A stretch of 58,697 bases of DNA, filler included, from Sphacelaria rigidula (Eukaryota): assembly GCA_964200075.2 (NCBI GenBank). It is 10 parts of 10 records of this genome, joined end to end, with 100 filler letters (N's around TTAATTAATTAA, not from the genome) between each part and the next. Parts side by side here need not be neighbours in the genome. Positions count along the whole stretch, not along the records: positions 1 to 5,780 come from CAXNAA020024518.1; 9 more parts are not named here. One strand, written 5' to 3'. The notes under the pieces are model-generated. The model made no database searches and was not told where the DNA came from. It saw nothing but the letters and a program-made list of their open reading frames with translations. Both the position numbers and the translations under genes were made by a program. This document shows, piece after piece, positions 2,005 to 50,416 of this stretch. Every line of letters begins with the position of its first letter. Positions within the stretch are counted from its first letter, which is position 1.

Positions 2005-2737
2005 ACTCAATCCGTAAGCTAGGCAACCAGGGTACCGATTTGTTTTTCTGCGTTTTTTTTTGCGGTAACGATGATGGTAGTCGAGTTAGATCATACTGTG
2101 CGGCGTCGGAGATCCTCCACTCCACGCAAAGGGGATGCTCGTACTACGCAGTGTTTAAATGGTGAACCATTCATGAGGCAGTGTAAAAGCCGTGGCTGTC
2201 TCTGAAAGTGACGATACCAGAAAATGAAGCAACCTATTGTAGGCCGTCATGACACTTTCTACGATAGCCTCCCTCAAAAAAGTGCATGGTTTGGGGAGGC
2301 GAAATCTTCACGTAAATCGAAATGTAAAAAGCCGAGCACAACGAGCAGCTTGGGATTCCTACGCTTGGCTTCGCTCTCGCCAATGTCGCCAATTTCATGC
2401 AACCTGAACCCAAACACCAGAAGCTGTATGGTCACTTTGTTCGTGACACTATTGGGCTAGTTTTTTTGGGGGGGGGCTATCGTAGGAATTGTCTCACCCA
2501 TACACGAGATAATCAGTACGCTTCGGGCCGAACAATTTGAGCAGGATGCAGCTCACCCTTCATGCGACTCGCCGAACACCGAACACGCCACGGCGCTTCG
2601 CGCTTAGTAATTGATTGCGAGCCCGGTCCAGCGAAAACCCGGCGCGCTTCGTCCCGGCTTTGTAGGGATGCGAGGTCAATGGTCTTATTACTGTGGCGTG
2701 CATGATCATGAGTACACCCCCCTCCCCTCCCCCCCCA
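2005..2737 (+). mobile_element. SINE-like element (family B), interrupted by a MITE at 2250-2494
   Basis: Colinear with the reverse complement of 3790-4475. Ends GGGATGCGAGGTCAATGGTC...CATGAGTACACCCCCC. No long ORF. A further fragment lies at ~1916-1952. Confidence 0.75.
2250..2494. mobile_element. MITE with ~30-bp TIRs (TGACACTTTCTACGATAGCC...) nested in family B
   Basis: Left end TGACACTTTCTACGATAGCCTCCCTCAAAAA, right end TTTTTGGGGGGGGGCTATCGTAGGAATTGTCT. Absent from the paralogous family B copy near 4005-4015. CA flanks both ends. A partial second copy is at 5881-5989. Confidence 0.8.
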
Positions 2738-3300
2738 ACAACATTCTCGCGTATTGGCCTAAAGACCACCAATGAAAGCAGCACGAAGGCCTTCGCAAGT
2801 AGCTGAATAAGCTAGCTGCAAGGAGTCAGTGTCGTAGGGGACAACCGATTGAGAACTGGATTGTATTCCTAGACTAACCTACATGGGGTGCATTGCGGTC
2901 TCAGGACAATTTCAAAACTCAAGCCTCCTCTCATCGGTGTTTCTTTTTTCAATCACCACCCATGAGTCCTGTCTTTCTGACTCGCGGCCAACCTGTGTCA
3001 GTCTCTCGAAATACATTTTTGAGATGCTTGGTGCGAGTCTACCAACACCCAACACATACATACTCTCAACGTACAAAGCACGTTCCGTTCCAGAGGTCTG
3101 ACTTACGTCTAGCAGCCTAAGTACTTGGATTTAGATAACCCTCCCATACACAAAAAAAAAAACACACCCCACACAAAAAACACACAAAAAAAAAACACGC
3201 GAGAAAAGGAGAGAGAGGAGAAANNNNNNNNNNCGCCCACAAAATGACCGCCCCCAGATTTTTTACTCACCCCTACGTACAACAGTACTCTGTTTTTACT

Positions 3301-3584: not shown

Positions 3585-3789
3585 GCAATTTGTCTGTGTG
3601 GTATCACAATATTATACCGTGGGTGCGTTACATATTTCTAGTATCCGTCAAATCTTGCACCAAAAAAGGCCTTGTTTTCCCCTCCTGCCCCCGGCCAAGT
3701 TTGGGCACATTACATATATATATATATGTTTATATATATTTTCATATATTTTTCTTCATTCACTTCTTATCTGGGGAAGGGAGGGGAAG

Positions 3790-4475
3790 GGGTACTCATG
3801 ATCTTCCATGCCGTAGTCGTAAGACCATGGGCCTCGCATCCCTACAAAGCCGGGACGGAGCACGCCGGGTTTTCGCCCGACCAGGTTCGCGATCAATCAC
3901 CAAACGCGAAGCGCCGTAATGTGTACGGCGAGTCGCATGAAAAGGGTGAGCTACATCTTGCTAAGATTGTTCGGCCCGGAACCTGCTGATTATTAGCTTG
4001 CATTTGGATGACAGCCTACAACGAGTCGCTTCATTTCTCTGGTATAGCCACCTCCAGGACAGCCACGAGTTAACACACTGCCTCACGGGTGTCTCAATTT
4101 CCAAGGATGTACACGTTACACTCGTTACGTGTCACGTCGTCAAAAGTTAAGCCAGGCTAGTACTACGGTGGGGGACGGGGACCACAGCGGGAGCCCTGTT
4201 CAAAAGTCAAGTTAAATCAGGGCTCCCCACGCGGTCCCCCACCGTAGTACTAGCCTGGCTTAACTTTTGACGACTTTTGACGTGAGGCGTGAACGTAACG
4301 AGTGTAAGGCGTAGAGATCCTTGATGAGTTCAACACTGCGTAGTACCACCATCCCCTTTGCGAGGAGTTGAAGTTCTCCATCCCGCACAACATGATCCAA
4401 CCCGACCATCATCATGGTTACTGCAAAACAAACGTAAGTGAGAAAGAAAAAGGGTATCTGGTTGCCTAGCTTGCG
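3790..4475 (-). mobile_element. SINE-like element (family B), interrupted by the 5S-bearing foldback insertion
   Basis: Reverse-complement match to 2005-2249 plus 2495-2720. The 3' end GAGTACCCC abuts a G-rich tract at 3774-3792. Confidence 0.75.
4102..4323. mobile_element. Foldback (hairpin) insertion with ~100-bp inverted arms, each containing a 5S rRNA-derived segment
   Basis: Arm 1 (4102-4198) CAAGGATGTACACGTTACACTCGTTACG...AAGTTAAGCCAGGCTAGTACTACGGTGGGG...GGGAGCCCTG. Arm 2 (4218-4323) is its reverse complement. AAGTTAAG...CCAGGCTAGTACTACGGTGGGGGACC..GGGAGCCCTG follows the 3' half of eukaryotic 5S rRNA (box A start, box C). Confidence 0.8.
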
Positions 4476-4644
4476 CGGGGAGAGTGGCAGTAGACCTACA
4501 GCTTTGGGCGTATATCTATGGTTGACAGCATGACTACTTGATTTTCGAGGTGAGAAAGTTCCGAGAAGATGTATGGTTCAGGGTAGGTAAACAGAGGACC
4601 CAGCTCGTTCAGAGCGTGTTTTTGTCGAAATCGGCGCCTGCGGC

Positions 4645-4735
4645 GTCGATTTGAGGTCTGCCAACGCACACTTTTTCTAGGGCAACCTGTACGCCTTGGG
4701 TCGGGGTTAGGGTTAGGGTTAGTGTTAGTGTTATC
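4645..4735 (+). repeat. Dispersed repeat carrying telomere-like TTAGGG units
   Basis: GGGGTTAGGGTTAGGGTTAGTGTTAGTG preceded by GAGGTCTGCCAACGCACACTTTTTCTAGGG. A related segment (GAGGTCTGCCAGCATGCACTTTGCCTAGGG...GTCGGGGTTACGGTTAGG) is at ~38595-38715. Confidence 0.55.
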
Positions 4736-5780
4736 GTCAGTTTGTTCGAAAAAATCAACTATGGATATACGACCAAACTTTAGGTCTTCTCGAGAGTGGC
4801 GTGTTTTACACGTCGTTACCAACCGACGCCTACCCTTCAAAGGGGGTCTTTTTTTTCTTTCTTTCTTCTTTTTTCGGGGGGGAGGGAAGGTACAGTTTTG
4901 GCTATTCAAGTGCCATACCTTGGGAGAGGGGTCATTGTCGCCCGATGAAACGTTTTCACGGAGAATAACATACGATGTACAACGACATGCTTCTGTGCAC
5001 GCATTTATCCTGAGGTGAAGTGTGGTCGTTACAAACTATTATACAGGCTGGTTCACGGTGATTACCCAAAATTGTGTCATCAGCAAATGCCTTCCGCGAT
5101 ACGCACCCAATAGTCGCATATATGGTATCATACTGACCGCAATGAAAAGACGAAGAGGGTGAAATAGCCGGATTCTTGTTCAAGGTCGTAGCGGTGGCGC
5201 TATGGACGAAAATATGTGTCAGCCAATCAGCGCCCTTCAAACTGTTTGTGCAAATACCTGCAGACTGTGCAATATATGTTTTTCTCGTATTTTGTCCAGA
5301 GGGCGCCCTCGAAATCTCTGACGCAAGCGAATCGGAAAAGTGGGCTAGGCTCCTCTCGGTGGGGTGATACGAAGTGTCCAAGACGTGTGGTGGCGATATT
5401 CCCTGTTTGGGGGTCAAAAACCTTGTCAAATGTTCTAAAAGTGGAAAATACGAGCCAAACAAAGTACGAACCGGAAGAAACGGCCTCAAAATGGAAAAGT
5501 TGTATTCTTGACAACTCATCATATTTTCTCCGTTCTCTACGGGCTTCCGGGGGGTCCCAGCATGAAGACCCCCGGAAGGCGGTACAGAATGCCCTACAAG
5601 AAAAATAGTGAAATGATGCGTCCCGGGAGAGTCCAACGAACACATGTACAGAGTTTGGTGGAGAAACTCGAAAACCTCATACAGTTTTTCTTGCCTTGAC
5701 GTCAAATTCACCCCAGAAGACGTTTTTATACTAAAACCAAGTAGTTAGGAGTTGCACGTTTCAAGCCCACGTCCTCCACA

Positions 5781-5880
5781 NNNNNNNNNNNNNNNNNNNN
5801 NNNNNNNNNNNNNNNNNNNNNNNNTTAATTAATTAANNNNNNNNNNNNNNNNNNNNNNNNNNNNNNNNNNNNNNNNNNNN
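5781..5880. other. Artificial contig-joining spacer (N-run, TTAATTAATTAA, N-run); recurs at 11661, 17541, 23421, 29301, 35181, 41061, 46940 and 52819
   Basis: Identical 100-nt spacers with stops in all six frames, separating contigs of 5780/5779 bp. Confidence 0.97.
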
Positions 5881-10945: not shown

Positions 10946-12257
10946 CTGACATGAGGGGAATAGCTATTGCATTGTTGATAGCACCGCGACTAGGTTAGTT
11001 TAGGCGCCGTGCTCGTCCTTCAAGACTTCTTTTTTCTTACGAAAATGCGGGGAAGGCACGGCACGGGCGTAGTTCGTACGCAAAAGACATGGCACGGGCA
11101 CGTTGCACCTCAACTCCCACCGGCGGGGTATTGCCATCTTCTGTTTTTTTAGAGCCTACGTCACATGGGCTCGATTCCTTCAAAACATTAGTTCCTTCTC
11201 TCCGATCCGTGGTCACGGGGTGCAAGGAGCCTACCACCCATGACCATAAAACCAAGAGTTGACAGAGGATGCGTTTACACAAAACGGTACACTACACGAA
11301 AGGAGCGAGCCCGCAAAAACCGATCGCACAACAAAGAACACCCTGCGAGCTGACAAATTATCGGCGTGTGATCTAGACGGCCAAATTACCACCTACTGCT
11401 GCATATTATTCGTGTAGAGACAGCAAACGCAGGAATCGGCATGTCGCAGGTGACGAGAACCATCCCGTAATAGACCTAGTCATATTAATATTGGAAAAAA
11501 CCCCAGGTTCAAGAAACTGAGGAAATAGCTTCATCACCGAAGCATCAACTGACTTGGCTCAACATCAATATCAAGTGAGTTAATCACCCTATAACAGGGT
11601 TGCCAGAAAAGTGAGAACGTGTTTTGAAATGAGAATCAACCGCTCCCCGGGATTGTGTAGNNNNNNNNNNNNNNNNNNNNNNNNNNNNNNNNNNNNNNNN
11701 NNNNTTAATTAATTAANNNNNNNNNNNNNNNNNNNNNNNNNNNNNNNNNNNNNNNNNNNNCCGGCAGACTACGTCGGTGAGGGGCGGAAGGGGAGGGGTT
11801 ACGCCCCCCCCCCCCCCCCCTACACGCGCCAAGACCATTCGTGTGTTGTCTACATCCAAGGTCGCCCTTGTTCTATAGGGCAAGCTTAAACAGGATAAAC
11901 GCTTTCTTCCCCATCTTGTGAAAAAAAGCCATTTGATCCCCCTCTATCGTTGAACGTGTCCTGGGAGAGCGGGCTGAATCTTTGTCCTTATCCTACAAGG
12001 GGGTGTAACTCATTGCTACCACTTTTATAGCTTCATTCAGAGTAGAGGCTTGCTTCTTCGATTATTTCCCCAGGTTTTCAACGTTTTCAGCTATCAACCA
12101 ACTAAACTATGAGCCGAGTTTACTGTCAACAATAACAACAGCAACAGTACTAGCAGTACAGCAACAACAATGACAACAAACGAAGCAGCGGTAGCAGCAG
12201 CAGCGATGCACCATGGCAATGACAGAATACATAGTAACAAGAATAAAACAGTATTAC

Positions 12258-16781: not shown

Positions 16782-19659
16782 GTAGATACTTGCAATTCAG
16801 TCCGGCACTGTCCTTGTGTGTTACGAGTCCTTCTATACAGCACCAGTATATCGATTACAAGTCAAAATCATCCGACCTACCCACAACACAATCAGCACAG
16901 ACGGTATACGAGTTATTCTCGGCGTAGGTAGCTGTATTATAAGTCCGCATACTGGACTGCTGTGCTGCTGTACTACCGGCCAATTTGACGGCACTTTACT
17001 TTGTACACTATCTGACAGAAGGGCACGCTACGGTGGTGTATGCCATGTGAGTCACTTGAAGTAGTCATGTGCACTGCCACGGCGCCCCCCTGTCGTAACG
17101 AGCACATGCAAGGCCAGTTGATTGACTGGTTGTCTCACATTAAGTGATGATGATACCGGAGGGATCCAGCCGTGGCGACAACATAGACGTATCCACGGTA
17201 AACAAATGGGAACGCTTGCTAAGGAAGAGAAGTGGATACACACAAAAATATACTGTAAGGCAAACGGATTAAGCTGGGGAGGGAAACGAGAACAAAAATG
17301 AAGAAGACAAGAAAAAGCCAAGCAGAGAATGGAGTGGAGAGGAACTAAGATTGAGCTAAAATACTGTAGGGAGAAAAAAATGTATATACAAAAATGTGAC
17401 TACAATCGGATGTTAGGGCCTGTCTTAACGAAGGGGATAATCCCCTTTTTCACGATCCCCTTTTGACAGGGGATTGGCCCCATAACGACCAGCCCCGAGT
17501 CCTATCGACAAGCAGTTTTGTACAGGTTGGAACCCAGATCNNNNNNNNNNNNNNNNNNNNNNNNNNNNNNNNNNNNNNNNNNNNTTAATTAATTAANNNN
17601 NNNNNNNNNNNNNNNNNNNNNNNNNNNNNNNNNNNNNNNNTGTACATCCACTTTTCCCAGAACTTCGGAAGCATTCCCATGGCTGGATCGAGTGATCTGT
17701 GAGCCAACCTGCCCCAAAACTGTCTGGAGGAACAAATAACGCCTCTCTATCTTCCTTCCTCATGACAGTATGCGGATGAATGATGGTTGAGACCCCAAAT
17801 TTGAGGTGGGTTCCAAAACTCGACATGTAAGTGAAGAAGTTGTTGTTATTCCGAGAGGTGCAAGATTCGCGAGGCATCCGTTTCTGATTGGATTGGTTGA
17901 TAATACTTCGTTAATATGGCAGGAGCAAGGACCGAGTAGCGCAATACTAGCCGCTTGACCTGGTCATGACAACTTCGGAAGATTGATTGTGGGCACAAGT
18001 GAAATTCCTGTGCTACAGATCAACAGAACGCACATGACCCATATTTGATGGCTGATAGATGGAGCTGACATCATGTGCGAGATGCGGTGCATGTGCACAT
18101 CATGCTAAAAAGGAAGAGTGCAGTTTATCATCCATATGGGAGCTGATCGTTGCTCGAAATTGCTGGCCGGGCGAAATCCATAGGGGTGTACACATGTTGG
18201 CACAGCATGTAAAAATAAAAGTGTACTGCTTTATCCAGCCAGGATGCTAGCGGCCGCATTGCTGTTTAATCCACATGTGTGATATGTGAACAAGAAGTAA
18301 AGCGTTGAAATAATGATTGTGCTGAATCCGGGTATGATATGTGGGTGTGCGCTTGTGGATGCCGTAACGCGACACCACAGTACAGTACGTGGTAACAGGT
18401 ATGTTCATCGGTTGGTGAATGACGCGCCCGAGTAACATGGATAATAATACTTTTCCTTTCTGCTGTCCCAGTGCCCATCCCCCTCGGGTCTGCATAATGT
18501 GTGAGACGCTGAGCCTCCAAAAACCAATTTGTCCGACACAGGTGCTGTCTGTGCGGCCGAGACAAGCACGGGATGACGAATCTTTTTGGAGGATGGTGAC
18601 CGACCAGGATCGAGAATCACCCCCCTTGCTGCAAACCTCCTCGCTATGGGAGAAAGATAGTGATAGATGCAGCGCTCCTTCCCCGTGGCCTTAAAGCGGG
18701 GGGGGGGGGGACATTGATAGCAAGAATTGGGGTGGGGCTGAAACTGATCGTGTGTTTTGTGTGGAGGCGTTGAGCTGCTTTGCTCCGCCGATCGCCGAGG
18801 GAGGAAAAGGGGTCAAGTAGATGTAGTGACTGTCTAGTTTGGCTTGATGACGTAGGCACTACTGTTGTACGGATTACTGATTTTGAAAGTTGAAATTTGA
18901 TTCTTGTACTGTAGGCAACTAACTGACTGTGTAATGACTTTTGGACTGCTGCCGAGATAGCCCTCCCCCGAACCGGCCAAACACTTGTACGGAGGCGATG
19001 TTCATATGCGCCGTTAGAGCTGGTTTCGTGCTGCATGACGCGACTTATTTGGGCGTTATAGCTGATTTCGGACTGCTACACGCCTCTCAGCGAATGATAA
19101 AACCCACTTTCGATCAACGATCTCTCAATCTCATGAGCACATAATCACACTTGTGTCCACCGCCTGAATACTTGTGCACGAGCCCATGGGCTCGAGAGCC
19201 CGCCTCCACATAATGGAATGCGGCGCCACCCACCCACAATTCGACGATTTGCTTTCTATCTATGCAGAGAGACAAAAAGTATTCAGAACCTGCTCACCCC
19301 AAGAAAAAAGAAACACAACACCTTCAACAAGACAACTGTTGCCGTGCAACGTTGGCAAACAAGGGATACACCCAGAAGACCAGCGCCACTCATGAAATGA
19401 CTCAGTCGAACATACGCGTTGCCCCTATCCCGACAAACGTCAGACCGAAACCTGATGACCATCGAATGAGCTCAAGTCTCCAGGCGCTCATGTCAGTACG
19501 CGCGCATCAAAGTCCGTGCGGCATTGAAAATCCGGACAATCACTTCCGTCATACTGAGCGTGCAAGAAAAGCATACGCCAGTCTTGCCCCCCCCCTCTCC
19601 CCGTCATTTTTTTCCCGTTCCCATCTCCACGCAAACTTCCGCCTCGGGCCGCTCCCTAT

Positions 19660-20100
19660 AACAGACAACAAAAGCAAAACGGGGAAAATGCCTTCTTGAA
19701 GCTTCGACGTCGATTTACTCTCTAGAAGAGAGCTAGGCGGAGTTTGACACCTTGAAATGACTTGCTCTACTAGTTGAGGCAGTTCCAGGATATCTCCCCG
19801 TTTTCCCGTGGCCGCAGTTCTCATTTTGGTCGAAGGAAATGTTTTGTCCCACAACGGTCAAGTCCAGAAAAATGCCGATTTTTTCGAGATTTGACTGTTT
19901 TTGACCGTTCTTGGACATAAATTCTTGTTTGGTCTAATTAAAACCGGCGGCCACCGGAAAACGGGAAGATGTCCTGGATCCGCCTCGACGAGTAGAGCAA
20001 GTCACTCCAAGGTGTCAAATTCCGCCTGGCTCTCTTTTAGCGCGAAAAACGACGTAAAAGCTCCAAAAGGGCACTTCTTCAGATTATATTTTTGTCTGTA
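19660..20100. mobile_element. ~440-bp foldback element (two ~200-bp inverted arms)
   Basis: GAGAGCTAGGCGGAGTTTGACACCTTGAAATGACTTGCTCTACT... mirrors ...AGTAGAGCAAGTCACTCCAAGGTGTCAAATTCCGCCTGGCTCTC. Symmetry continues almost to the centre (~19880). Confidence 0.8.
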
Positions 20101-22320: not shown

Positions 22321-23931
22321 CGGTACACAGATGTTTTTCAGTGTGACGTTAACGTGAGCGGTAAACTAAAACGTGGCGGTCATTCTGCGATGGTGAGCGG
22401 TTTTCAACTTTCGACCGTACCATAAGTAGCGAAGGAAATTTCGCAGGTGTGTTGGGTTGGGTCAATACCCGGGTGTTCCCTGTCCCGACGTTGGTGTTGC
22501 GATGGTCCGTTCTCAAAACTTTTTCAAAAGTCTGCATTCGCCAATATTCGTATGGGGTAGAGTAGGGTATGATCGCTATACTCTGCCCAATATCTGCATT
22601 GCTGAGTACGATCTCATTGGTCTACCCGAGGTTTGGGTACTTGTAATATGATTCTTTTAAAATACCCAAATGCAGGAAAAATCATCAAAACGACAAAAGC
22701 ACAACAGCACCACCTTCCTAGCTATGTGCGGGAACACACGCACAATATGCAGCTCAAAACAATCGGAGTATCATCATTAGCTATGGTGAAATAAAACAAA
22801 CAAGTACTTTACCACGAACGACGCAATCCTTCAACAGTCTCCTTACCCGCCCCAACCGAAATATTCCACGCCGTTCGCAAAACGTCAACCGTCAAATCAA
22901 CACTTCAGATTGACGCACAACCCAAACCGAAACACGAAAAGTGTAGGTGCGTATTGCAACCGGGAATGAACGTGCCCGTGGGCTCTCAAAAGACAAGGGG
23001 AAAAGCTTCCGGTAATGAAAACATGACAGCACAAAAATGCCGTCATTACGTCACAGAAAGAAAAAAAGCAAGGGTGATATAAAAGTACACTGAGCATTGG
23101 TCAGCACAGAACCTCTCTTAATACAGTGCACATCCCCTGGCTAAAAAGTACAATGGGTATTGAATACTCGGTATCGAACCTGTGCGAGAGGGGGTGTCAA
23201 CGAGGGTAAGTGGGTGGTATACAATTACTCTCAATGCAACATCAACAACAATGTTTTCGTGAGATTGAGAATCTTCGATACGATTGAGAGTAGGGTTGAG
23301 GCAAGCTGTCAGCGGCCGGTTGTGCCTGCATTAATGGATAAAACGCTTACCTCGCACATTGGTGCAATATCCTGCCGGCAAACCCAACAATGTTTCCGGG
23401 AAATCGAGCGTCGAAAGTACNNNNNNNNNNNNNNNNNNNNNNNNNNNNNNNNNNNNNNNNNNNNTTAATTAATTAANNNNNNNNNNNNNNNNNNNNNNNN
23501 NNNNNNNNNNNNNNNNNNNNCAGCGCCGTTGCCACTCGACGCCAACCCAAGAGTCTAGAGGCGAGGGGGGGGAGGTGGGGGCAGCGCGTGAACGCGCGAT
23601 TTGCTCATGCTAGGGATGTATTTTTAACTCAAGTGTATCCACATGGAAATAAAGAAACGAGGATAAGTTGTCTCTATGGTTGCAAAAATGTCGTCGAACA
23701 GCCCGGATACTGTTTGGAGGCTAACCCCTCCCGTCCCCCCCCTCCCCATTCGCATCCCTAACTGTTCTATAACGCTGCAACATACAACATCGTTTTATGT
23801 ACCGTATGCATCTGAGCGCACCTGAATCGCGTCACGCTACATCTTCAACTAACTGCCCCACGGATTTGTGTATCATGGACCGTGCTGTAGTGCAGGCTTA
23901 GTCGCCGAAGACACGGACAGGAGTGTTTACA

Positions 23932-24560
23932 CGCGATCATACTCATCAATTTTGGGCCGTTTTCAATGAAGTTTTGACACGATGTACAGGACGTATGTGT
24001 GAAGACCCCATGTTTCCTCCTCCACATTTTTTTTTCTCCGTGAGTTATTTTCGATTTAGTTCCGAAAAAACTGTTCTGACATGTTCCGTCGCCAATTACT
24101 CACGAAGAAAAGGAAAAAAAATACAAGAGAGAGAAAATAAGGTCTTAGCACATACGTCCTGTACATCGTGTCCAAATTTACAAGTAAACGACCTAAAATT
24201 GAGCAGTATAATCGCGTTTTCCGGTCGAAAACCGGCCCCCTTGTGGAGATGGACCAGCCACGACGGGAACAGGGAATTCTAAACCGCAGCCGCTCCGCTG
24301 TTCAATTTCAAGCTATTTTTCCTGAAATTTTGACACGATGCGTAGCTATGTTCAAGGACCCTAATTTCTCCCCCTGGGCCTTTTTTTTTTCAATGAGCAA
24401 TCGAGGATTTGTCCCGGAAAAACTGTTCCGAAATTTGGATTACCGATAACTCACGAGAAAAGAAGCAAAAAGTGCAGGGATAACAGTAGGGGCTTTGCAC
24501 ATACCCTGTGTACATCCTGTCAAAATTTCATAACAGGCTGGGCCGAAATATCAGCAGGAT
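23932..24560. mobile_element. Two tandem palindromic MITE copies (~23932-24216 and ~24295-24560)
   Basis: Copy 1 has arms TTTTGACACGATGTACAGGACGTATGTG / CACATACGTCCTGTACATCGTGTCCAAA. Copy 2 is a diverged version with the same centre (CCGAAAAAACTGTTC). Confidence 0.75.
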
Positions 24561-26350: not shown

Positions 26351-27772
26351 CCCGGAACAATTGAACAGCAAGAATAACGATCGACAGTAGCCGTCACTTC
26401 GCTGAAAGCAGGTGACAGGAGACACTACACACCAAAAAAATGCCATTTTCCCCTGTAATTTGATTCAAGATGTGGTGTGACCATTCACAATCGATCGAAA
26501 GCTTGTGACCTCGCGGACATACGCCCGTTTAATTATCTGCACAGTTAACAGACAAGCCGATATTGCGGAAAGCGCATTTCAACATACGAGCTTTTTGGTC
26601 CGGTCTTTTCGGAGACACAAACACTCCGTGCTCGCAGGGGCACCGCGGCACCACTTCTGGAGATCCTCGAGATTGTTGCTTAACCTTGGGGCAGCCTCTC
26701 GGTGGACCCTTTCACACATCGGACAGCCCATAACGCTACCTAAATGACTAACCAAAGAGGACTCCCGCACCCCTTGTCCAAGCACACAAAATACGTGACA
26801 GCAGGGTCAGAGAAGCCAAAGCTCTACCTTCGCGTGACTCCGCGTGCTCGGTGTCCAGCGCTGCAGGGAGCAGATGTGAAAAAAAAACGGCGCCAAATGA
26901 GCTAGCTCGTGATCCGGATAATCAGACTAATAACAAGAAATACCGTAATTGTGCGAGTCATCGCACACCCCCTGGACCGAATTTCAAAGCTCGATAACTC
27001 CACAACAAGAAGAGCATCAGTGCTGAAAAGGGTGACGCTTGAAATATCTCGCCGATAGCTGTACGAAAACGCGTCGTTTGGTATTGGCACCCTCTTCGTC
27101 ATGGATTAATCGAGCCTTGAAATTCGGTCCAGGGGGTGTGCGATGACTCGCACAATTACGGTATTGAGGTTGGTCATGAGCTGTCCGACTTGTGGACCCT
27201 TTACACCACTGTCACCCAGTTGGGGCTTCAGCCACTCACAATTTCATGCTTGCCGCGGGCATGGCTGCCAATGTCCCTCACCAGCGCGAAGGGGTCTGCA
27301 ACCTGTCCATCTTCAGACCTCTCTCTTCCCATACATTATTATCAATACAGTAACAAATTGACTGCATTTCCACTTTCGCGAGATGAAGTCTCGATGCAGG
27401 CTCATCGGCCCACGAAATGACATCGGGGTGGTGTAGGCTCTAATGGCACCTAATATGTACAATCGTCTTCACACGACTGCTCACCCATCTCCAAAGTTTT
27501 GTGGACGTCGTGGGCCACCTGTTGTATGGACGCATTCAAATCATTCAGTGCACTAACATTCGGGCAGGACATGTGGCGAACTTGGTTCGCCAGCCGGCTT
27601 CGAAGAGGCTGGACCAACGTGCACATGGCCCATTTCTGTCCCTGATCCGAGGTATCAGACACTACCCCCTCCCACCTTGGAACGAATGCCTTAATAATAT
27701 CACGTGCCGTGGCGCTTTTTTTTCATTCTCGTGACGTCACGTCTTGAAATAACGGCTTTGCGCCTCTTCCAG

Positions 27773-30223: not shown

Positions 30224-31695
30224 CTCCGCTTTTCGCTTCGTCTCCTCTTCCTGCAGTTTTAGTTTAGCTGTCTCTTGTCTGGCAAACGCCTGCTGCTCCC
30301 TGAGCAGCGCCTCCCGCTCTCGTTGTTCCCGCAATAGCCTTTCGCTCTCCTGCAGTATAGGTGGATTGATACAAAAGTAGATGGATAGACATCAGATGAC
30401 AGAAAGCGGATAGCAGATAGCCTATTTTTATGTGTCTTCGACTTTACCCGTTCTCGTCCTTGTTCTTTGAAACAAATACTAACAAATACTACAATAGAGG
30501 ATTTGTCCACACCCTAGACTATAGAATAAACAATCAAAAAGTGTATTGCATACAGTATCGACTACTGCGCCTATTGCATTAGACAATATATTCCATACTG
30601 TACACAGTACATTTTTTTACACTAGAATCTTTTGTCCAGGGTGTGGATTTATCCATGGTTGATGGCCCGGTTAACCCCACTTCTTCAGGTCATGACGTGC
30701 AGTTTTCAATCAATATATATATTTTCTTCAAATCGAGAAGAAAGTTGCTGCGCTATATATGATACGTATTTTACCCTAATTTGGCGGTGTTTTCCGTGTG
30801 AAAAAATAAAAAATCAATGACTGGCGAGGAAGGAGGAGAGGGTATTGAAAGTAATTTCCTAGTTATTTGGCTGTTGGCAGAGTGACAACAATGACAAGAA
30901 TAAAAAGCTTGCATATATACATATATATATCAACTCAACCCAACAAATTGAGAGAAATAAAACGGCTCTTTGTCATTCAACTGTCCGATCAAACCTTACC
31001 GTCTACCACTTCCGGGCTCTTTCGAGCAACTAATTGATGACTGTGAGCTCTGTAGACAGACTCGCTTCGTATCGGAAACATGACATCTATATAATTATAT
31101 ATATATATATATATATATTCAAAATGTGTCTTATCCAAGCGTGATCAGGACTGTGAGGGCCGTGTCATGACGAAGCAATAGCCGCCGCGCCCGTTCGGTC
31201 TATATTGTCTTCCCCTCGTCCAAAAAACAAAATCCAAAACGAAATGCAACCAACCATCCCATCCCCAATCACTAATTAATAAATTTACAATATATAAATA
31301 ATTTTTTTAGTATGTGAAATATAATGCATGATATTTATACAATTAAACTGGCAAAATTGACACAGTTAGGTTCCACCGTGGATGATGACAACATTGACCG
31401 CGGCTGGGCCCCTGGGGATTAGTTGGCGTGCGGTCACTATCCACGATCGAATCGAATCAAATCAATTTCACCGACGTGCCTGCCTTTTCCCCATTTATCA
31501 CTTCGGGAGAATATCTACTGGAGGTGATAATATTCATGGGTGCAGACAGATACAAAAAAAAACATAGCCGACTCACCCGTTTCTTCTCCTCGAATCGACG
31601 CATATTTGCCTCTTGTTGACGAAGTTGTTCCTGCCGCCGCTCCTCTTCTATTACTCGCTGCTTGTCTTGCTGAAAACACCACCACCACCACCACC

Positions 31696-35052: not shown

Positions 35053-35104
35053 CTGCTCGGTGGGAGGCAGTATGTACAGTGACGGGGCCGGCGGGCCGGC
35101 GGGA

Positions 35105-35180
35105 GGGGAGGCGTACTCATGATCATGCATGCCATAGTCATGAGACCATTGACCTCGCATCCCTACAATGCCGGGACGGA
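35105..35180 (-). mobile_element. Family B 3' end (cut by the contig end)
   Basis: GGCGTACTCATGATCATGCATGCCATAGTCATGAGACCATTGACCTCGCATCCCTAC...GGGACGGA. Confidence 0.8.
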
Positions 35181-38015: not shown

Positions 38016-38450
38016 CACGCCCTGGACAAAATATTATATTGTCAAAAAATGTACTGCGTATAGTATAGAATATATTGTCAACGGCATTAGGCGCAATAGT
38101 CGATACTGTACGCAGTGCACTTTTTTGCTGTGTATTATTTTGTCCAGGGCATCCGATTTTCTCGTGTGGTGTGTGAGCTCGCGCTTGTCCTGGACCGAAA
38201 GAAGAAGCTAAGCTTGTCGTGGTAGATCGCATTGCTGCAACTTGGACTCGTTTGTTATCATGTGACAGAGAAGGATGTCGAGTCCACAACACCGCCGACG
38301 TTGCCGGCAGCAACACAAGAAGTTCCACACCCTGGACAACCGATTACATTGCCAGAAAGTGAACTGCGTACAGTATAAGCTAACGCGTCTATCGCAATAG
38401 ACAATACATCCCATACTGTACACGGTGCATTTTTTTATGATATAATCCAA
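38016..38450. mobile_element. Two MITE family E copies (~38016-38150 and ~38326-38450)
   Basis: CCTGGACAAAATA...TATTTTGTCCAGGG and CACACCCTGGACAA..., with the same internal palindrome as 3438-3584. Confidence 0.65.
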
Positions 38451-38819
38451 ATACTGGAAGGTTTACCAAATGGTAATGGTGGCAGGTAACGTTACTTGAT
38501 AAAATAAACACCGATATTCGAATCTGTAGAGGGGCCGATAACCCCTGGTGCTTCTGTCATGGCTTGCCCAGAACATGATTTTGGTTCGAGTGGGGGGCGC
38601 CGAGTAGAGGTCTGCCAGCATGCACTTTGCCTAGGGTACCTACCCTCTGTACCCCCCGTTCCCGAGTGTTCCCTGACGCCTTAGTTGGGGCTTGTGTCGG
38701 GGTTACGGTTAGGTTCGGCGGCACCCTCTGTATAGCACCAATCAACGTCCCGACGTATGGCACCAAACCGAAAAGGTCTACTGAGGGGTATTTGCCTCCG
38801 AACCATGAGGACCGTCCAC

Positions 38820-39078
38820 CTGGGTCATGTATCATTTATTCAAGTGAAATCGATGCCGATTCAACAGATGAATTACTCTCGTTGACTAAGGGTTAACCCT
38901 TTGTTCGCGACGGTAAGTCACCCGCTGAACCGGGATCAATATGCACGTGACCAGAAGTATGCGTGATCCAGATGGACTACCCGCACCGCGGCGCGAGGGT
39001 TAACCCTTAGACGGCGACAGTAGGTCATCCGTCGAATCGGCATCAATTTCACTTGGAAAGGATATGCACGATCCAGAT
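38820..39078. mobile_element. MITE / foldback element with long (about 65-85 bp) TIRs
   Basis: CAAGTGAAATCGATGCCGATTCAACAGATGA...TAAGGGTTAACCCT mirrors AGGGTTAACCCTTAG...TCATCCGTCGAATCGGCATCAATTTCACTTG. The internal motif GATCCAGATGGACTACCC recurs inverted at ~48785-48812. Confidence 0.8.
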
Positions 39079-40678
39079 AAACTACCCTCGCAGCCTATGA
39101 GGGTTGAGGGCCCCTTCTAGCGGTACAAGAAGACTGAGGGTGCGCCGTGTGAGTGATTCTGGCGGTATCGGTAGTTTCGTCTCGCTTTGCCCTTCGGGTT
39201 GGTGAAGAGCCGATGGCAACCGATTGGAACGACAAGAGTAGAAGAAAAAAAATCCCCGAAACCGCCACAATCCAGAATCATTCTCACATTGCGTTCTCAC
39301 TTTTCTTGTCTCGTTAAACACGGCCTAATGACGAGTGTAGCTCCCAAGTCTTTTTTGCGGTGGAGAGCACGTACGCCCCGAGACTTGCCGAGATTCGGAG
39401 TATGGTCCTCAGGTGGTGAATCATGCAGGAGATCTTTCGTAAGGCGCATGCCTCATGCTATGCAAGTAGCCAGTCCACTCTCTCCCTTCAGCTTGCCGAC
39501 ACGAGACGGAGCAGGAAGGTCCCGAAGATTTTTCGCCAAGAACAAAAAGTACCTCGTTTTTTCTTCATGTATTTGCTTCGCTCAAATATTTGGTGATTCG
39601 CGGGGAAGCATGATGCATCATTCGATCAGTCAAATTCATCGTAAGGGTAACTTGACTCCTCTCTCGTCGAGATTTGTTGCCTGCCCCCCAGAAATTTCTT
39701 CTCAAGCGCGTGATTGTTGTGGGAAGCGTTCTGAAGATTTTAAAACCCGCAACTCCGCCCTGGAAGAACCCCTCGACCCACGGAAATCCTCCATAGTGTA
39801 GGTATAGGAGTCTGCCAGCAGGCCGCTCTAGGCGCTGTGAGGAATTGGCGTGTTCTGAATTTCGACCAAAAGGATTATACGGCAGGACTGAGACAATTGG
39901 TTGCCCACCTATTCACGCAAAAGCAGACCCACGAAAACCACATCGAAGTCGCTTTGCGTTATCCATCGTGCAACGCCGCAAGCCTCCGCTTGGGCAGCGA
40001 TGGTTTTTATGAGGGGAGCAGCGGCTCGTTCGGTGCACGTTGCTTGTGTGTGCGTGACCTTGCTCTCGTCCTGCTCGGTTTCTTGCTGTAGAGGGTGGAG
40101 GGAAGAGTGTCTGCATACTCTCTGCACAAGAACTAAGCGTCACTCAACCACACCAGCGTGCTCTCCTTGCAGCACGTATGCCGCCACCGAATACCCCACG
40201 CGGTTCACCGGTTCAGCAATAGTTGTGTGTGTACGGGCGAGAAACCAGAATATCATATGATAAATTGCTGTTCCCAGTCAAAGCCTGACGGTGCAGATGC
40301 CGAACTGTACGCCAAAAGTGACTCAATTCCTTCTGTAATGGAATATATGCGAGCAGGTACGAAAGTCGGAACGCGAAAGAGAGTTGTAGGTCACTGTCTC
40401 TTCAGCCCGAGGTTGGATGAAGTCAAGATTATCACTTGTGGCGAGAAGCTCACGAGTCCCGCCCTGCAACTACATGCACCGTTTCTGGTTCATTTTTTGA
40501 GCTACTTTCTAAGATGGAGTAGGCACTTTCCGGAAACCTATTTGTCGTCAACTTTTACCGATTTGAGCTGTTGTCGGTGACCGAAATGTCGAGAATTGAC
40601 TTTTCTGAAATATCTTGCCCCCCCCCCCACTACCCCATCCTCTCTCACCCTCTGACTTGACTGGCGCCAACCCTCCAG

Positions 40679-40972: not shown

Positions 40973-41220
40973 CGACCACTTTCGACGATAGCCTCCCCCC
41001 CCCCCCCCCCCCCCCCCGCCCCCCCCCCCCCCCACCCCCCCAAACAAAAAGGAAAAACAANNNNNNNNNNNNNNNNNNNNNNNNNNNNNNNNNNNNNNNN
41101 NNNNTTAATTAATTAANNNNNNNNNNNNNNNNNNNNNNNNNNNNNNNNNNNNNNNNNNNNCCCCCCCGCCCCGGGTTTGCTGCTCGCCGGGGCGGGGGGG
41201 GGGGGGGGGGGGGGGGGGGG

Positions 41221-41333
41221 GTATACTCATGATCATGCCTGCCATAGTCATCTGATCGTTGACCTCGCATCCCTATAAAGCCGGGACGGAGCACGCCGGG
41301 TTTCACCGGACCAGGCTCGCACTCAGTCACCAA
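41221..41333 (-). mobile_element. 5'-truncated family B copy with G-runs on both sides
   Basis: TACTCATGATCATGCCTGCCATAGTC...GACCTCGCATCCCTATAAAGCCGGGACGGAGCACGCCGGG...CACCAAG. Confidence 0.8.
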
Positions 41334-50131: not shown

Positions 50132-50416
50132 CAAAGGTTGTGACATATATACATCGATAGTGCACTCGCTGGGATACTCTTCAGCATTTGTGACACACGG
50201 ACGGTGCAGTTGGGGCATGTTTTCATATATATTTTAGCATAGGGCACAATCGGAACAGAAACAAGTTCAATGCCTGTGTAAATATCTTGTACATATATCC
50301 AACTGCACCGTCTATGGGTCATGGACGACTTTTTTATTATTTTCATATACATTTTAGTATGGGACAATCGGAACAGAAACCAGTGCACTACCCATGTATA
50401 TATGTCATAACCTTTG
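50132..50416. mobile_element. hAT-type MITE with ~35-bp TIRs and a near-perfect 8-bp TSD
   Basis: ACTGAAAC|CAAAGGTTGTGACATATATACAT...ATGTATATATGTCATAACCTTTG|GCTGAAAC; internal direct repeat containing ACAATCGGAACAGAAAC. Confidence 0.8.

Follow-up and report, generated by a model that had tools for sequence, protein, structure and literature searches.

A 222-bp near-palindrome at positions 4102 to 4323 of the window, which is the whole 58.7-kb stretch of DNA that was analysed, has arms that resemble 5S rRNA. The locus raises the question of what kind of genetic unit holds two pieces of a 5S rRNA gene facing each other across a short loop. A preliminary description proposed a mobile hairpin element of the MITE or foldback type with captured promoter sequences. 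The reading that we favor, on balance, is a MITE- or foldback-like DNA element that captured a 5S fragment a single time, spread as a palindrome by hAT-like cut-and-paste movement, and carries the 5S fragment as a passenger.

The two arms measure 97 and 106 nt and are separated by a spacer of 19 nt. Pairing between them falls into three mutually collinear inverted-repeat blocks: 4110-4130 with 4293-4313 (21 nt, 90%), 4119-4176 with 4234-4291 (58 nt, 88%) and, innermost, 4177-4198 with 4218-4239 (22 nt, 82%), the last with 19 nt between its halves. Aligned globally, the left arm (4102-4198) and the reverse-complemented right arm (4218-4323) agree in 84 columns, mismatch in 6 and have gaps in 23. 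Folded as single-stranded DNA, 4102-4323 reaches -89 kcal/mol, compared with -32.2 +/- 3.6 for 200 shuffled sequences (z = -15.6), and none of the 200 folds equally well. The repeat blocks and the DNA fold thus bear out the earlier account of a near-palindrome of about 220 bp with arms of about 100 bp and a spacer of about 19 bp. The arms do pair in inverted orientation, as was claimed, but their lengths are unequal: the left arm contains GGGGAC twice, a 6-nt duplication, and the right arm contains a 10-bp tandem duplication (x2) at 4263-4282, detected by TRF. The element is non-coding, with a longest stop-free stretch of 39 aa. Its parts are as follows.

4102 to 4143, plus strand: outer, non-5S part of the left arm, with terminus CAAGGATG...; it pairs with 4267-4323, and the match of a 730-bp contig from sequencing run X3 begins exactly at 4102.
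4144 to 4198, plus strand: 5S-derived part of the left arm, in 5S sense, comprising 5S positions 49-56 and then 67-107 plus the 6-nt duplication (alignment with the 5S of metagenome locus L001, blastn, nhmmer).
4199 to 4217, no strand assigned: spacer or hairpin loop, TTCAAAAGTCAAGTTAAAT, the 19 nt between the innermost arm halves.
4218 to 4266, minus strand: 5S-derived part of the right arm, with 5S sense on the minus strand, comprising 5S positions 49-56 and then 67-107 (RF00001, blastn, nhmmer, alignment with the 5S of L001).
4267 to 4323, minus strand: outer, non-5S part of the right arm, ending in a ...CATCCTTG-type terminus (reverse complement CAAGGATC...) (inverted-repeat alignment, TRF).

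The spacer is not 5S-like and is similar to the arm's own TCAAAAGTTAAG junction. Judged by sequence comparison, the inner half of each arm is derived from a 5S rRNA gene. A 22-mer of the arm has exact matches at 42 metagenome loci. Rfam was applied to 20 of these, and every one is a 5S gene above the gathering threshold (53-103 bits, 14 of them at 102.7 bits), and each of the 42 contains a blastn match to the metagenome 5S of the 102.7-bit type. Agreement with 5S extends beyond the 22-mer seed and takes in the AAGTTAA(G) block as well as the 4 preceding and 12 of the 16 following positions. In the whole window, 5S matches lie in the two arms only. The right arm matches over 42 nt at 90.5% (38 of 42 positions) with a blastn E-value of 1e-11 and an nhmmer E-value of 4e-10, and the left arm over 26 nt at 100% with E-values of 1.9e-8 and 9.5e-7, respectively; the nhmmer query consisted of 9 distinct 5S sequences, searched against the whole window, and the E-values from both programs depend on how the 5S loci were found and are not independent.

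Aligned with the 119-nt 5S sequence of L001, both arms consist of AAGTTAAG (5S positions 49-56) fused directly to 5S positions 67-107, with the identical 10 nt (57-66) absent. This alignment confirms the deletion of about 10 nt that the arms had been said to share. A 21-mer spanning the deletion junction is absent from viral contigs and from contigs of prokaryote genomes, and none of the 42 metagenome 5S loci contains the junction or has the 22-mer on both strands. Some metagenome loci contain partial 3' 5S fragments that adjoin true 5S genes.

With Rfam at gathering score, the whole window gives no match. The RF00001 model aligns with 4206-4285 on the minus strand at 19.2 bits, compared with a gathering threshold of 38 (E = 0.21 for 501 bases and 0.055 for 131 bases), and the left arm alone has no RF00001 match at E <= 10. 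The cmsearch test that had been suggested for the arms thus stays below threshold, and their 5S homology, as first proposed, is upheld through the bona fide 5S loci. We rejected the idea that the element is itself a 5S rRNA gene, given this score and the presence of only 5S positions 49-56 and 67-107 of 119.

We take the Xenopus 5S coordinates to be 50-64 for box A, 67-72 for the intermediate element and 80-97 for box C. On these coordinates, 7 of the 15 box A positions survive in the arms, and the spacing between box A and box C is 10 bp shorter. In the right arm, the intermediate element and box C differ little from those of the host 5S gene, and the left arm of the window copy has a 6-nt insertion within box C. 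The 5S fragment retains the intermediate element and box C and only half of box A. Of the span first described, from the start of box A through box C, the box C end holds and box A is not whole; the phrase "captured TFIIIA sites" was too strong for arms with this box A, this spacing and an interrupted left box C.

The surroundings of the element establish that 4102-4323 is an insertion into an older dispersed repeat. The relevant features are listed below.

3773 to 4101, plus strand: left flank, part of the older dispersed repeat (earlier called family B), with blastn matches to 2732-2509 (minus), 2250-2174 (minus), 41202-41333 and 35101-35180.
4094 to 4101, plus strand: putative left copy of the target-site duplication, TCAATTTC, 8 bp (joint in an X1 contig, restored-site alignment).
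4324 to 4331, plus strand: putative right copy of the target-site duplication, ATGAGTTC, 8 bp (joint in an X1 contig, restored-site alignment).
4324 to 4475, plus strand: right flank, the same older repeat continued, with a blastn match of 4329-4475 to 2158-2013 (minus) at 77.9%.
2159 to 2173, minus strand: empty site in a paralogous copy of the repeat, in the same piece of the window (blastn, restored-site alignment).

By blastn, 4008-4085 aligns with 2250-2174 and 4329-4475 with 2158-2013, both on the minus strand. The paralogous copy has about 15 bp (2159-2173) between these segments, compared with 243 bp in the interrupted copy, and about 8 letters at the insertion point itself. In addition, a contig of run X1 lacks the element and passes from 4093 to 4332 over 7 other letters. 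The blastn alignment and this empty-site contig support the earlier claim that the paralog at about 2140-2180 is free of the element. The left-flank repeat is found in many contigs in all four sequencing runs. Evidence for a target-site duplication is weak. The putative 8-bp copies agree at only 4 of 8 letters, in the one copy of the element whose flanks were read, and the alignment of the restored empty site is best when 8 bases are removed, with a score of 55 compared with 50 for no removal; neighboring values give 50-54, so the peak is small.

By blastn, the 58.7-kb window contains one copy of the element. The element is multi-copy, and both arms occur together in other copies, as represented by assembled contigs of the sequencing runs. 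Distinct contigs with C at spacer position 4213 number 107 in X1, 95 in X3 and 104 in X4. The 730-bp contig of X3 is a second complete copy, covering 4102-4315 with 26 differences and 14 gaps, and its flanks do not fit the locus in the window. A contig of X4 covers 4110-4292. Among the contigs listed, the same left end (4102) occurs in one only. Centre-deleted variants are present in X1, X3 and X4, with joints from left to right arm at 4173>4227, 4174>4236 and 4175>4227 and with 51-61 bp missing. Given the spacer contigs in each DNA run and the second complete copy, the element is not the solitary genomic sequence that the preliminary description had weighed against its own proposal.

In X1, the depth summed over contigs, which is not equal to copy number, is 8,341 and 9,567 for the outer arms, compared with 72.7 for the contig of the exact locus. 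At spacer position 4213, it is about 70,000, or about 8 times that of the outer arms. Because of this excess, many copies of the centre may have other outer sequences or a different arrangement. On 4218-4259, the host's own 5S genes appear to pile up. The depth on this stretch in three DNA runs consists of T at 4225 in 69-91% and T at 4232 in 96-99%, and both, read on the 5S strand, agree with the bona fide 5S gene of metagenome locus L038. Also, 78 contigs of X4 exit the arm at 4218, and their continuation, once reverse-complemented, resembles the 3' end of 5S with a T-run behind it. Solitary arms are not countable, since real 5S genes map onto the arm stretch too.

For the outer arm parts, local alignments detect no likeness to the 5' half of 5S: the score of the left outer arm is reached by 1747-1802 of 2000 shuffles, and that of the right by 1136-1506 of 2000. 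In neither arm, and with neither of two 5S variants, does the alignment score exceed the shuffle mean. We therefore rejected a decayed 5S 5' half as the source of the outer arms, in agreement with their original description as non-5S. Grounds for considering such a source were the length of the outer arm (42-57 nt, compared with 48) and its beginning, AAGGA, which may be compared with AGGAA in 5S. A 15-mer of the outer arm occurs in viral contigs at 26 loci, where agreement is confined to the surroundings of the seed; these are chance matches.

In its length of 222 bp, lack of coding capacity and terminal inverted repeats, the element corresponds to a MITE, and the arms constitute most of it (203 of 222 bp), as in foldback elements. 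Foldback elements of the FB or Galileo kind have arms built of internal tandem subrepeats. Subrepeats of this type are absent from the arms, where TRF finds one 10-bp x2 duplication in one arm only (cf. the available text of PMC3573991). The MITE label thus holds in part: it stands as regards size, inverted arms, absence of coding sequence and multiple copies, and is weakened by the poor 8-bp duplication.

Both ends of the element read CAAGGAT, and CAAGG fits YARNG. An 8-bp target-site duplication and YARNG termini are given as hallmarks of hAT transposons (PMC3014272, available text). By these motifs, the element possibly belongs to a hAT-like group. A separate MITE in the same window, at 50132-50416 (285 bp), has CAAAGG termini and an 8-bp duplication alike at 7 of 8 letters. 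Its first 20 nt resemble the left terminus of the element with a score attained in 15 of 2000 shuffles, and for the other three arm pairings, 43-146 of 2000 shuffles reach the score. Of the 17 window ORFs of at least 150 aa, 14 were compared with Pfam, which assigns a family to none of them, with no transposase among those 14, and the window has no tRNA genes.

These observations are compatible with the following history. A piece of a nuclear 5S rRNA gene would have been captured once and joined to the outer part; a single capture is suggested because the two arms agree in their 10-nt deletion and in their junction to the outer part. The composite arm would then have been duplicated in inverted orientation, which would place the 5S fragments tail to tail around the 19-bp spacer, and the finished palindrome would have spread as one unit. 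The copy in the window landed in the older dispersed repeat. Movement would most likely have been cut-and-paste, by a transposase supplied in trans that recognizes the outer termini, and the CAAGG ends with the apparent 8-bp duplication would suggest the hAT superfamily. Most likely, the 5S fragment is a passenger, and the element is probably inert.

Other explanations can be given for a palindrome of this kind. The poor target-site duplication, with 4 of 8 letters alike, would also be expected of a palindromic 5S pseudogene pair that is not mobile by itself, formed by rearrangement or as break-repair filler and then copied passively by segmental duplication or as repeat cargo. The partial 3' 5S fragments beside true 5S genes in some metagenome loci imply that such pieces arise readily, and the greater summed depth of the centre than of the outer arms fits as well. 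However, the insert is exactly the palindrome, and other copies of the repeat are empty at that point; a second contig contains the whole unit, with non-fitting flanks and a match from exactly 4102; and the outer arm ends have a transposon-like terminal motif. We consider passive copying unlikely. A gene for a hairpin RNA of the host, such as a precursor of microRNA or small interfering RNA, is highly improbable in place of a selfish element, although the hairpin is long and nearly perfect and MITE-derived microRNA genes have been reported in plants (available text of PMC3086885 and PMC8862332). Rfam microRNA families match weakly on both strands, the best being mir-3158 at 46 bits, but this is far under the threshold of 97 and equal on the two strands. 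We read mir-3158 and the other strand-symmetric, sub-threshold microRNA-family matches as generic matches to a G+C-rich hairpin. The insertion also lies in a decayed repeat and belongs to a multi-copy family with centre-deleted variants.

The right arm and spacer on the minus strand, from 4323 to about 4201, might instead constitute a 5S-like unit of about 123 nt, close in length to the 119 nt of 5S, in which case the element would be a Pol III retroposon and the palindrome an inverted dimer. This unit would combine a partial internal promoter with a T4 terminator (4205-4202, in the spacer), which lies 12 nt past the 5S-like end, on that strand only; the corresponding distance in the inferred host 5S 3' end is 10 nt. 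The Rfam minus-strand alignment covers the 5S model from end to end and closes a helix-I-like stem (7 of 9 pairs), and the published 5S-bearing elements in PMC10946416, as far as its available text goes, are all retroelements. On the other hand, the alignment score of 19.2 bits is well below 38, and the unit lacks 5S positions 1-48, the beginning of the box A context and 10 nt of promoter. It has neither an A-rich nor a LINE-derived tail, and what was inserted is the whole palindrome. The predicted RNA fold of right arm plus spacer is ordinary (z = -0.83, equaled by 35 of 200 shuffles). We thus discarded a "mini-5S" fold for it, in that the stem forms but the energy is ordinary, as it is for the left arm plus spacer (z = -0.90). 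The retroposon explanation is, in our estimation, quite improbable.

In a contrasting reading, which we regard as improbable, the 5S piece is no passenger. The right arm could bind TFIIIA and, together with adjacent sequence, seed Pol III transcription across the palindrome, and the resulting hairpin RNA could be diced into 5S-identical small RNAs. The first T4 run on the plus strand of the element is at 4265-4268, after both arms. If the active reading were true, hundreds of dispersed copies would form a TFIIIA sink or chromatin landmark, or a source of 5S-directed small RNAs, and Cassandra and SINE3 would have their first counterpart among DNA transposons.

TRIMs are defined by direct long terminal repeats and by an internal domain with a primer-binding site and a polypurine tract. 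Repeats of the element are inverted and its interior is 19 bp, and we do not assign it to the TRIMs exemplified by Cassandra and Ajax. Like the element, Cassandra (plants) and Ajax (ribbon worms) contain a 5S segment in terminal repeats, twice per copy (available text of PMC10853983 and PMC10946416). In Cassandra, the shared region extends over the A-box, IE and C-box, and its core measures about 70 bp (PMC10853983, available text). In Cassandra and Ajax, direct long terminal repeats surround an internal domain and movement is RNA-mediated, whereas in the element the repeats are inverted, 19 bp apart, and box A is truncated.

The 5S SINEs (SINE3/AmnSINE1, OS, MEG-RS, Ped-1, HaSE3 and 5S-Sauria) are also mobile with a 5S part that contains internal-promoter sequence, but they are retroposons in which one 5S-derived head is followed by a tail (PMC10946416, available text). 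The element ends in inverted repeats, has no tail and contains two inward-facing fragments that lack 5S positions 1-48, 57-66 and 108-119. A 5S-derived SINE would have one head that begins at 5S position 1, a whole internal promoter and a tail; with 5S 1-48 and 57-66 absent, two inverted fragments and no tail, the element is not one. A 2024 review of rDNA-derived transposable elements places 5S-derived ones among retroelements only (PMC10946416, Table 2). The earlier statement that SINE3 and Cassandra are not convergent inverted arms is correct, and no DNA-type counterpart appears in that table or in the literature searched. More generally, a literature search whose scope did not extend to Repbase or most subscription journals found 5S-derived arms in no DNA transposon and in no MITE or foldback element. 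PMC3845634 mentions 5S as a negative control only. The other four published types of 5S-bearing element being retroelements (PMC10946416, available text), a retro-origin of the 5S piece is possible.

Among DNA transposons, hAT-type MITEs such as 50132-50416 are similarly small and non-coding, with CAA(A)GG (YARNG) inverted termini and an apparent 8-bp duplication. In an ordinary MITE, short terminal repeats enclose an interior unrelated to them, whereas arms of about 100 bp fill the element, which has gene-derived sequence inside and a degenerate duplication. Other class II elements have acquired comparable modules. Pokey and mPok are non-autonomous in class II (piggyBac) and carry captured rDNA spacer repeats (PMC10946416, available text), and MER6, a mariner MITE, has a V-SINE domain, a module from a Pol III-type element (PMC6887750, available text). 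In these elements, the module is a different one, is internal and, from the descriptions available, apparently does not occupy both inverted arms. The subterminal inverted repeats of Dada DNA transposons repeat a short sequence of small-RNA genes, which the authors speculate helps target recognition; these repeats are 7-9 bp, the transposons sit inside the matched small-RNA genes, and the duplication is 6-7 bp (PMC3706591, available text). The element, in contrast, contains about 50 bp of 5S and is located in an unrelated repeat.

Borrowing of the 5S internal promoter is known for retroelements only (SINEs, Cassandra and Ajax), and the element would indicate that class II also picks up 5S. It would serve as a natural test of a partial 5S promoter outside a retroelement. 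Most likely, the 5S piece is an inert passenger, and the element would then be a curiosity of transposon modularity. A practical consequence is that 5S loci of algal genomes could be overcounted, since dispersed copies would show up as 5S-like matches or as signals in hybridisation; the same argument has been made for Cassandra (PMC10946416, available text).

The element that we call the 5S hairpin occupies window positions 4102-4323 and is a 222-bp near-palindrome. A repeat search resolved its arms into three collinear blocks:

4110-4130/4293-4313, inverted, block 1
4119-4176/4234-4291, inverted, block 2
4177-4198/4218-4239, inverted, block 3, with 19 nt between its halves

An alignment of the left arm (97 nt) to the reverse-complemented right arm (106 nt) has 84 matching columns, 6 mismatches and 23 columns with gaps. 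The gaps stem from a left-arm duplication of 6 nt, from 14 nt of right-arm sequence within which lies a 10-bp x2 tandem duplication (4263-4282), and from two short indels. Modelled as single-stranded DNA, the element is predicted to fold at -89 kcal/mol, versus -32.2 ± 3.6 for shuffled sequences (z = -15.6; 0 of 200 shuffles as good). These results bear out the near-palindrome that had been described from sequence alone. The element is short and noncoding (longest stop-free stretch, 39 aa), and BLASTN found no other copy in the 58.7-kb window, the next best match having E = 1.5.

The inner arms had been proposed to derive from 5S rRNA. Rfam by itself does not settle this identity: no match reached the gathering score anywhere in the window, and RF00001, the model suggested for this purpose, does match the minus strand at 4206-4285, but with 19.2 bits against a threshold of 38 (E = 0.21 when 501 bases were searched, 0.055 when 131 were). 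The left arm searched alone gave no Rfam match at E ≤ 10. We therefore rely on metagenome loci retrieved with a 22-mer that lies where the arm is perfectly paired. This 22-mer is present once in each of 42 loci, and on both strands in none of them. All 20 loci that were tested by Rfam are 5S rRNA genes, with scores of 53.3-102.7 bits (14 at 102.7; the two lowest-scoring loci are truncated by locus ends), and all 42 match the 102.7-bit 5S by BLASTN, 27 instances being one identical 119-nt sequence.

Aligned to this 119-nt 5S, both arms consist of AAGTTAAG (5S positions 49-56) fused directly to positions 67-107, so that positions 1-48, 57-66 and 108-119 are missing; the deletion of about 10 nt reported as common to both arms is thus confirmed. 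The right arm matches 5S positions 66 to 107 at 38 of 42 positions, and the left arm matches across the same range, broken by its own 6-nt duplication. In the whole window, the two arms are the sole matches to the fished 5S genes, both by BLASTN (E = 1e-11 and 1.9e-8) and by nhmmer with a profile of 9 distinct 5S sequences (E = 4e-10 and 9.5e-7). These E-values are inflated, since the 22-mer used to retrieve the loci came from the element itself. The 5S origin holds on two independent grounds: the retrieved loci are true 5S genes, and the match exceeds the bait at homologous positions, in that the 4 positions preceding the seed, 12 of the 16 following it and the AAGTTAA(G) block agree with 5S. 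The outer arms (42 nt on the left, 57 nt on the right) do not resemble the 5' half of 5S: their scores were reached by 1136-1802 of 2000 shuffles. Because the deletion and junction are common to both arms, we judge that the 5S piece was captured once, most likely as a passenger.

The flanks of the hairpin are part of an older dispersed repeat, family B, of which a paralogous copy lies in the window on the minus strand. Positions 4008-4085 align with 2250-2174 (minus) and 4329-4475 with 2158-2013 (minus), at 78-80% identity by BLASTN; between these segments the paralog has about 15 bp, versus 243 bp in the hairpin-bearing copy. Assembled contigs of four public runs were also compared with 3700-4750 at 80% likeness. 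In one contig from DNA run X1, 7 letters of other sequence separate 4093 from 4332, and more contigs from DNA runs X1, X3 and X4 link 4036, 3940 or 4017 to 4332 or 4384. Because both the paralog and the contigs bridge the site without the palindrome, it entered as one unit, and the earlier claim of an insertion holds. Empty sites have 7-8 letters where the hairpin-bearing copy has 8 + element + 8, as an 8-bp target-site duplication would leave, and the alignment of the restored site peaks when 8 bp are removed (score 55; it is 50 with nothing removed, and 49-54 when any other length between 1 and 11 bp is taken out). The putative duplication copies, TCAATTTC and ATGAGTTC, are alike at 4 of 8 letters, and this duplication is unproven.

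Both family B copies lie within the first ~5.78-kb piece of the window. The paralog has its own 243-bp insertion (2251-2493), with 31-bp inverted ends consisting of GACACTTTCTACGATAGCC and a C/G run, that is not in the copy at 3993-4008. A segment of the flanking repeat of about 94 bp, bordered by G-rich runs (3792-3885; also 2712-2620, minus), reaches a summed depth of up to 26 million in X1, where a single-copy contig has 72.7. On both sides the loose ends resemble poly-G, and the segment is either a short repeat of extreme abundance or an artefact of poly-G sequencing.

The hairpin is not confined to this locus. Positions 369-596 of a 730-bp X3 contig match 4102-4315 with 26 differences and 14 gaps, beginning exactly at the left terminus, and the listed flanks are not from the window locus. 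One X4 contig spans 4110-4292. In all three DNA runs, contigs lead from the left arm into the right but lack 51-61 bp of the centre (4173>4227, 4174>4236, 4175>4227), as deletion-prone palindromes would give. The spacer, which is not 5S-like, carries C instead of T at 4213 in 107, 95 and 104 distinct contigs (X1, X3 and X4, respectively). The left arm's 6-nt duplication recurs in an X3 loose-end consensus, and the arm asymmetry therefore predates the window copy. Together, the second near-full contig, the centre-deleted contigs, the spacer coverage and this consensus show that the element is multi-copy, as the preliminary description had supposed, and that its arms travel together; solitary arms are masked in these contig data by real 5S genes.

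Summed contig depth, which is not equivalent to copy number, is 415,000-435,000 in X1 across 4204-4275, about 48,000 in the left inner arm, and 8,341 and 9,567 in the outer arms; the exact-locus contig has a depth of 72.7 and 0 differences. We infer that contigs from the host's own 5S genes accumulate on the right arm. T occupies position 4225 in 69%, 91% and 86% of the depth (X1, X3 and X4, respectively) and position 4232 in 96-99%; on the 5S strand, these change GACCGCGTGGGGAG to GACCACGTGGGAAG, as in the 5S gene of metagenome locus L038. Moreover, 78 X4 contigs diverge from the window at 4218, and their reverse-complemented continuation resembles the 3' end of 5S followed by a T-run. Among the differences listed, about two positions of this stretch would distinguish the right arm from host 5S genes. 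The spacer has roughly eight times the depth of the outer arms, and subfamilies with other outer sequences may account for this excess.

Because it is short, noncoding and multi-copy with inverted ends, the 5S hairpin is likely a MITE-like or foldback-like element. The earlier MITE/foldback assignment stands in these respects, but classical foldback elements have tandem subrepeats in their arms, which the hairpin lacks. Other inverted-repeat elements in the window are as follows:

50132-50416, ordinary MITE with termini CAAAGGTTGTGAC, 36-bp inverted ends (92%) and a flanking 8-bp duplication (ACTGAAAC/GCTGAAAC, 7/8)
19686-20076, long-armed hairpin/foldback-type repeat
23931-24217, long-armed hairpin/foldback-type repeat
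26939-27165, long-armed hairpin/foldback-type repeat
30499-30654, long-armed hairpin/foldback-type repeat
38019-38446, long-armed hairpin/foldback-type repeat
38807-39089, long-armed hairpin/foldback-type repeat

The six hairpin repeats have arms of 64-193 nt that are 71-95% complementary and show no 5S likeness; within the window, only the 5S hairpin carries 5S sequence. Given these repeats and the 243-bp inverted-repeat insertion, small inverted-repeat elements are common in this genome. The hairpin has CAAGG at both termini, consistent with the YARNG motif that, with 8-bp duplications, is typical of hAT elements according to an excerpt of PMC3014272. The MITE at 50132-50416 looks hAT-like. 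Its first 20 nt resemble the left terminus of the hairpin with a score reached by 15 of 2000 shuffles; in the three remaining pairings of arms, 43-146 of 2000 reach it. This likeness is a lead, not a demonstration, that the two elements share a hAT-like transposase. Elsewhere in the window, 40988-41224 has a long C-run and G-run as inverted ends (33-36 nt) flanking about 160 bp, and its left end, ATAGCCTCCCC..., is like the ends of the 2251-2493 insertion. Nine filler blocks (N44-TTAATTAATTAA-N44) recur at a spacing of exactly 5880 bases (5781-5880, 11661-11760, 17541-17640, and so on), as expected if the window is made of some ten 5.78-kb pieces linked by stops in all frames and is not contiguous, and a 10-N gap at 3224-3233 is separate from them.

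The Xenopus 5S internal promoter comprises box A (50-64), an intermediate element (67-72) and box C (80-97). By these coordinates, the arms presumably retain 7 of 15 box A positions and the whole of the other two elements. The spacing from box A to box C is 10 bp shorter in the arms, and the left arm of the window copy has 6 extra bases within box C. T4 runs occur on the plus strand at 4265-4268 and 4275-4278, and on the minus strand at 4205-4202 and 4145-4142; Pol III transcription initiated on the left would thus run through both arms, and from the right it would end within the spacer. Either arm with the spacer folds as RNA no better than shuffles. None of the public runs containing this stretch is catalogued as RNA. 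The promoter and dsRNA roles proposed for the 5S piece are somewhat overstated.

The 5S-derived mobile elements in a 2024 review are SINEs and the Cassandra and Ajax LTR elements only (PMC10946416, Table 2 and section 11); the one DNA transposon in its list, Pokey/mPok, has rDNA spacer repeats, not 5S. Cassandra resembles the 5S hairpin in that each of its terminal repeats contains the promoter region of 5S (PMC10853983), but its repeats are direct and those of the hairpin inverted. Excerpts of two other papers describe MER6, a MITE with a SINE-derived domain (PMC6887750), and Dada transposons, whose 7-9-bp subterminal repeats are copied from the targeted small-RNA gene (PMC3706591). A full-text literature search, with most subscription journals and Repbase outside its scope, found no inverted-repeat element with 5S-derived arms, and absence is thus unproven. 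In some of the 42 metagenome loci, a partial copy with just the last ~42-45 nt of 5S and a T-run lies near the true 5S gene; duplication of 3' 5S fragments thus happens in relatives as well.
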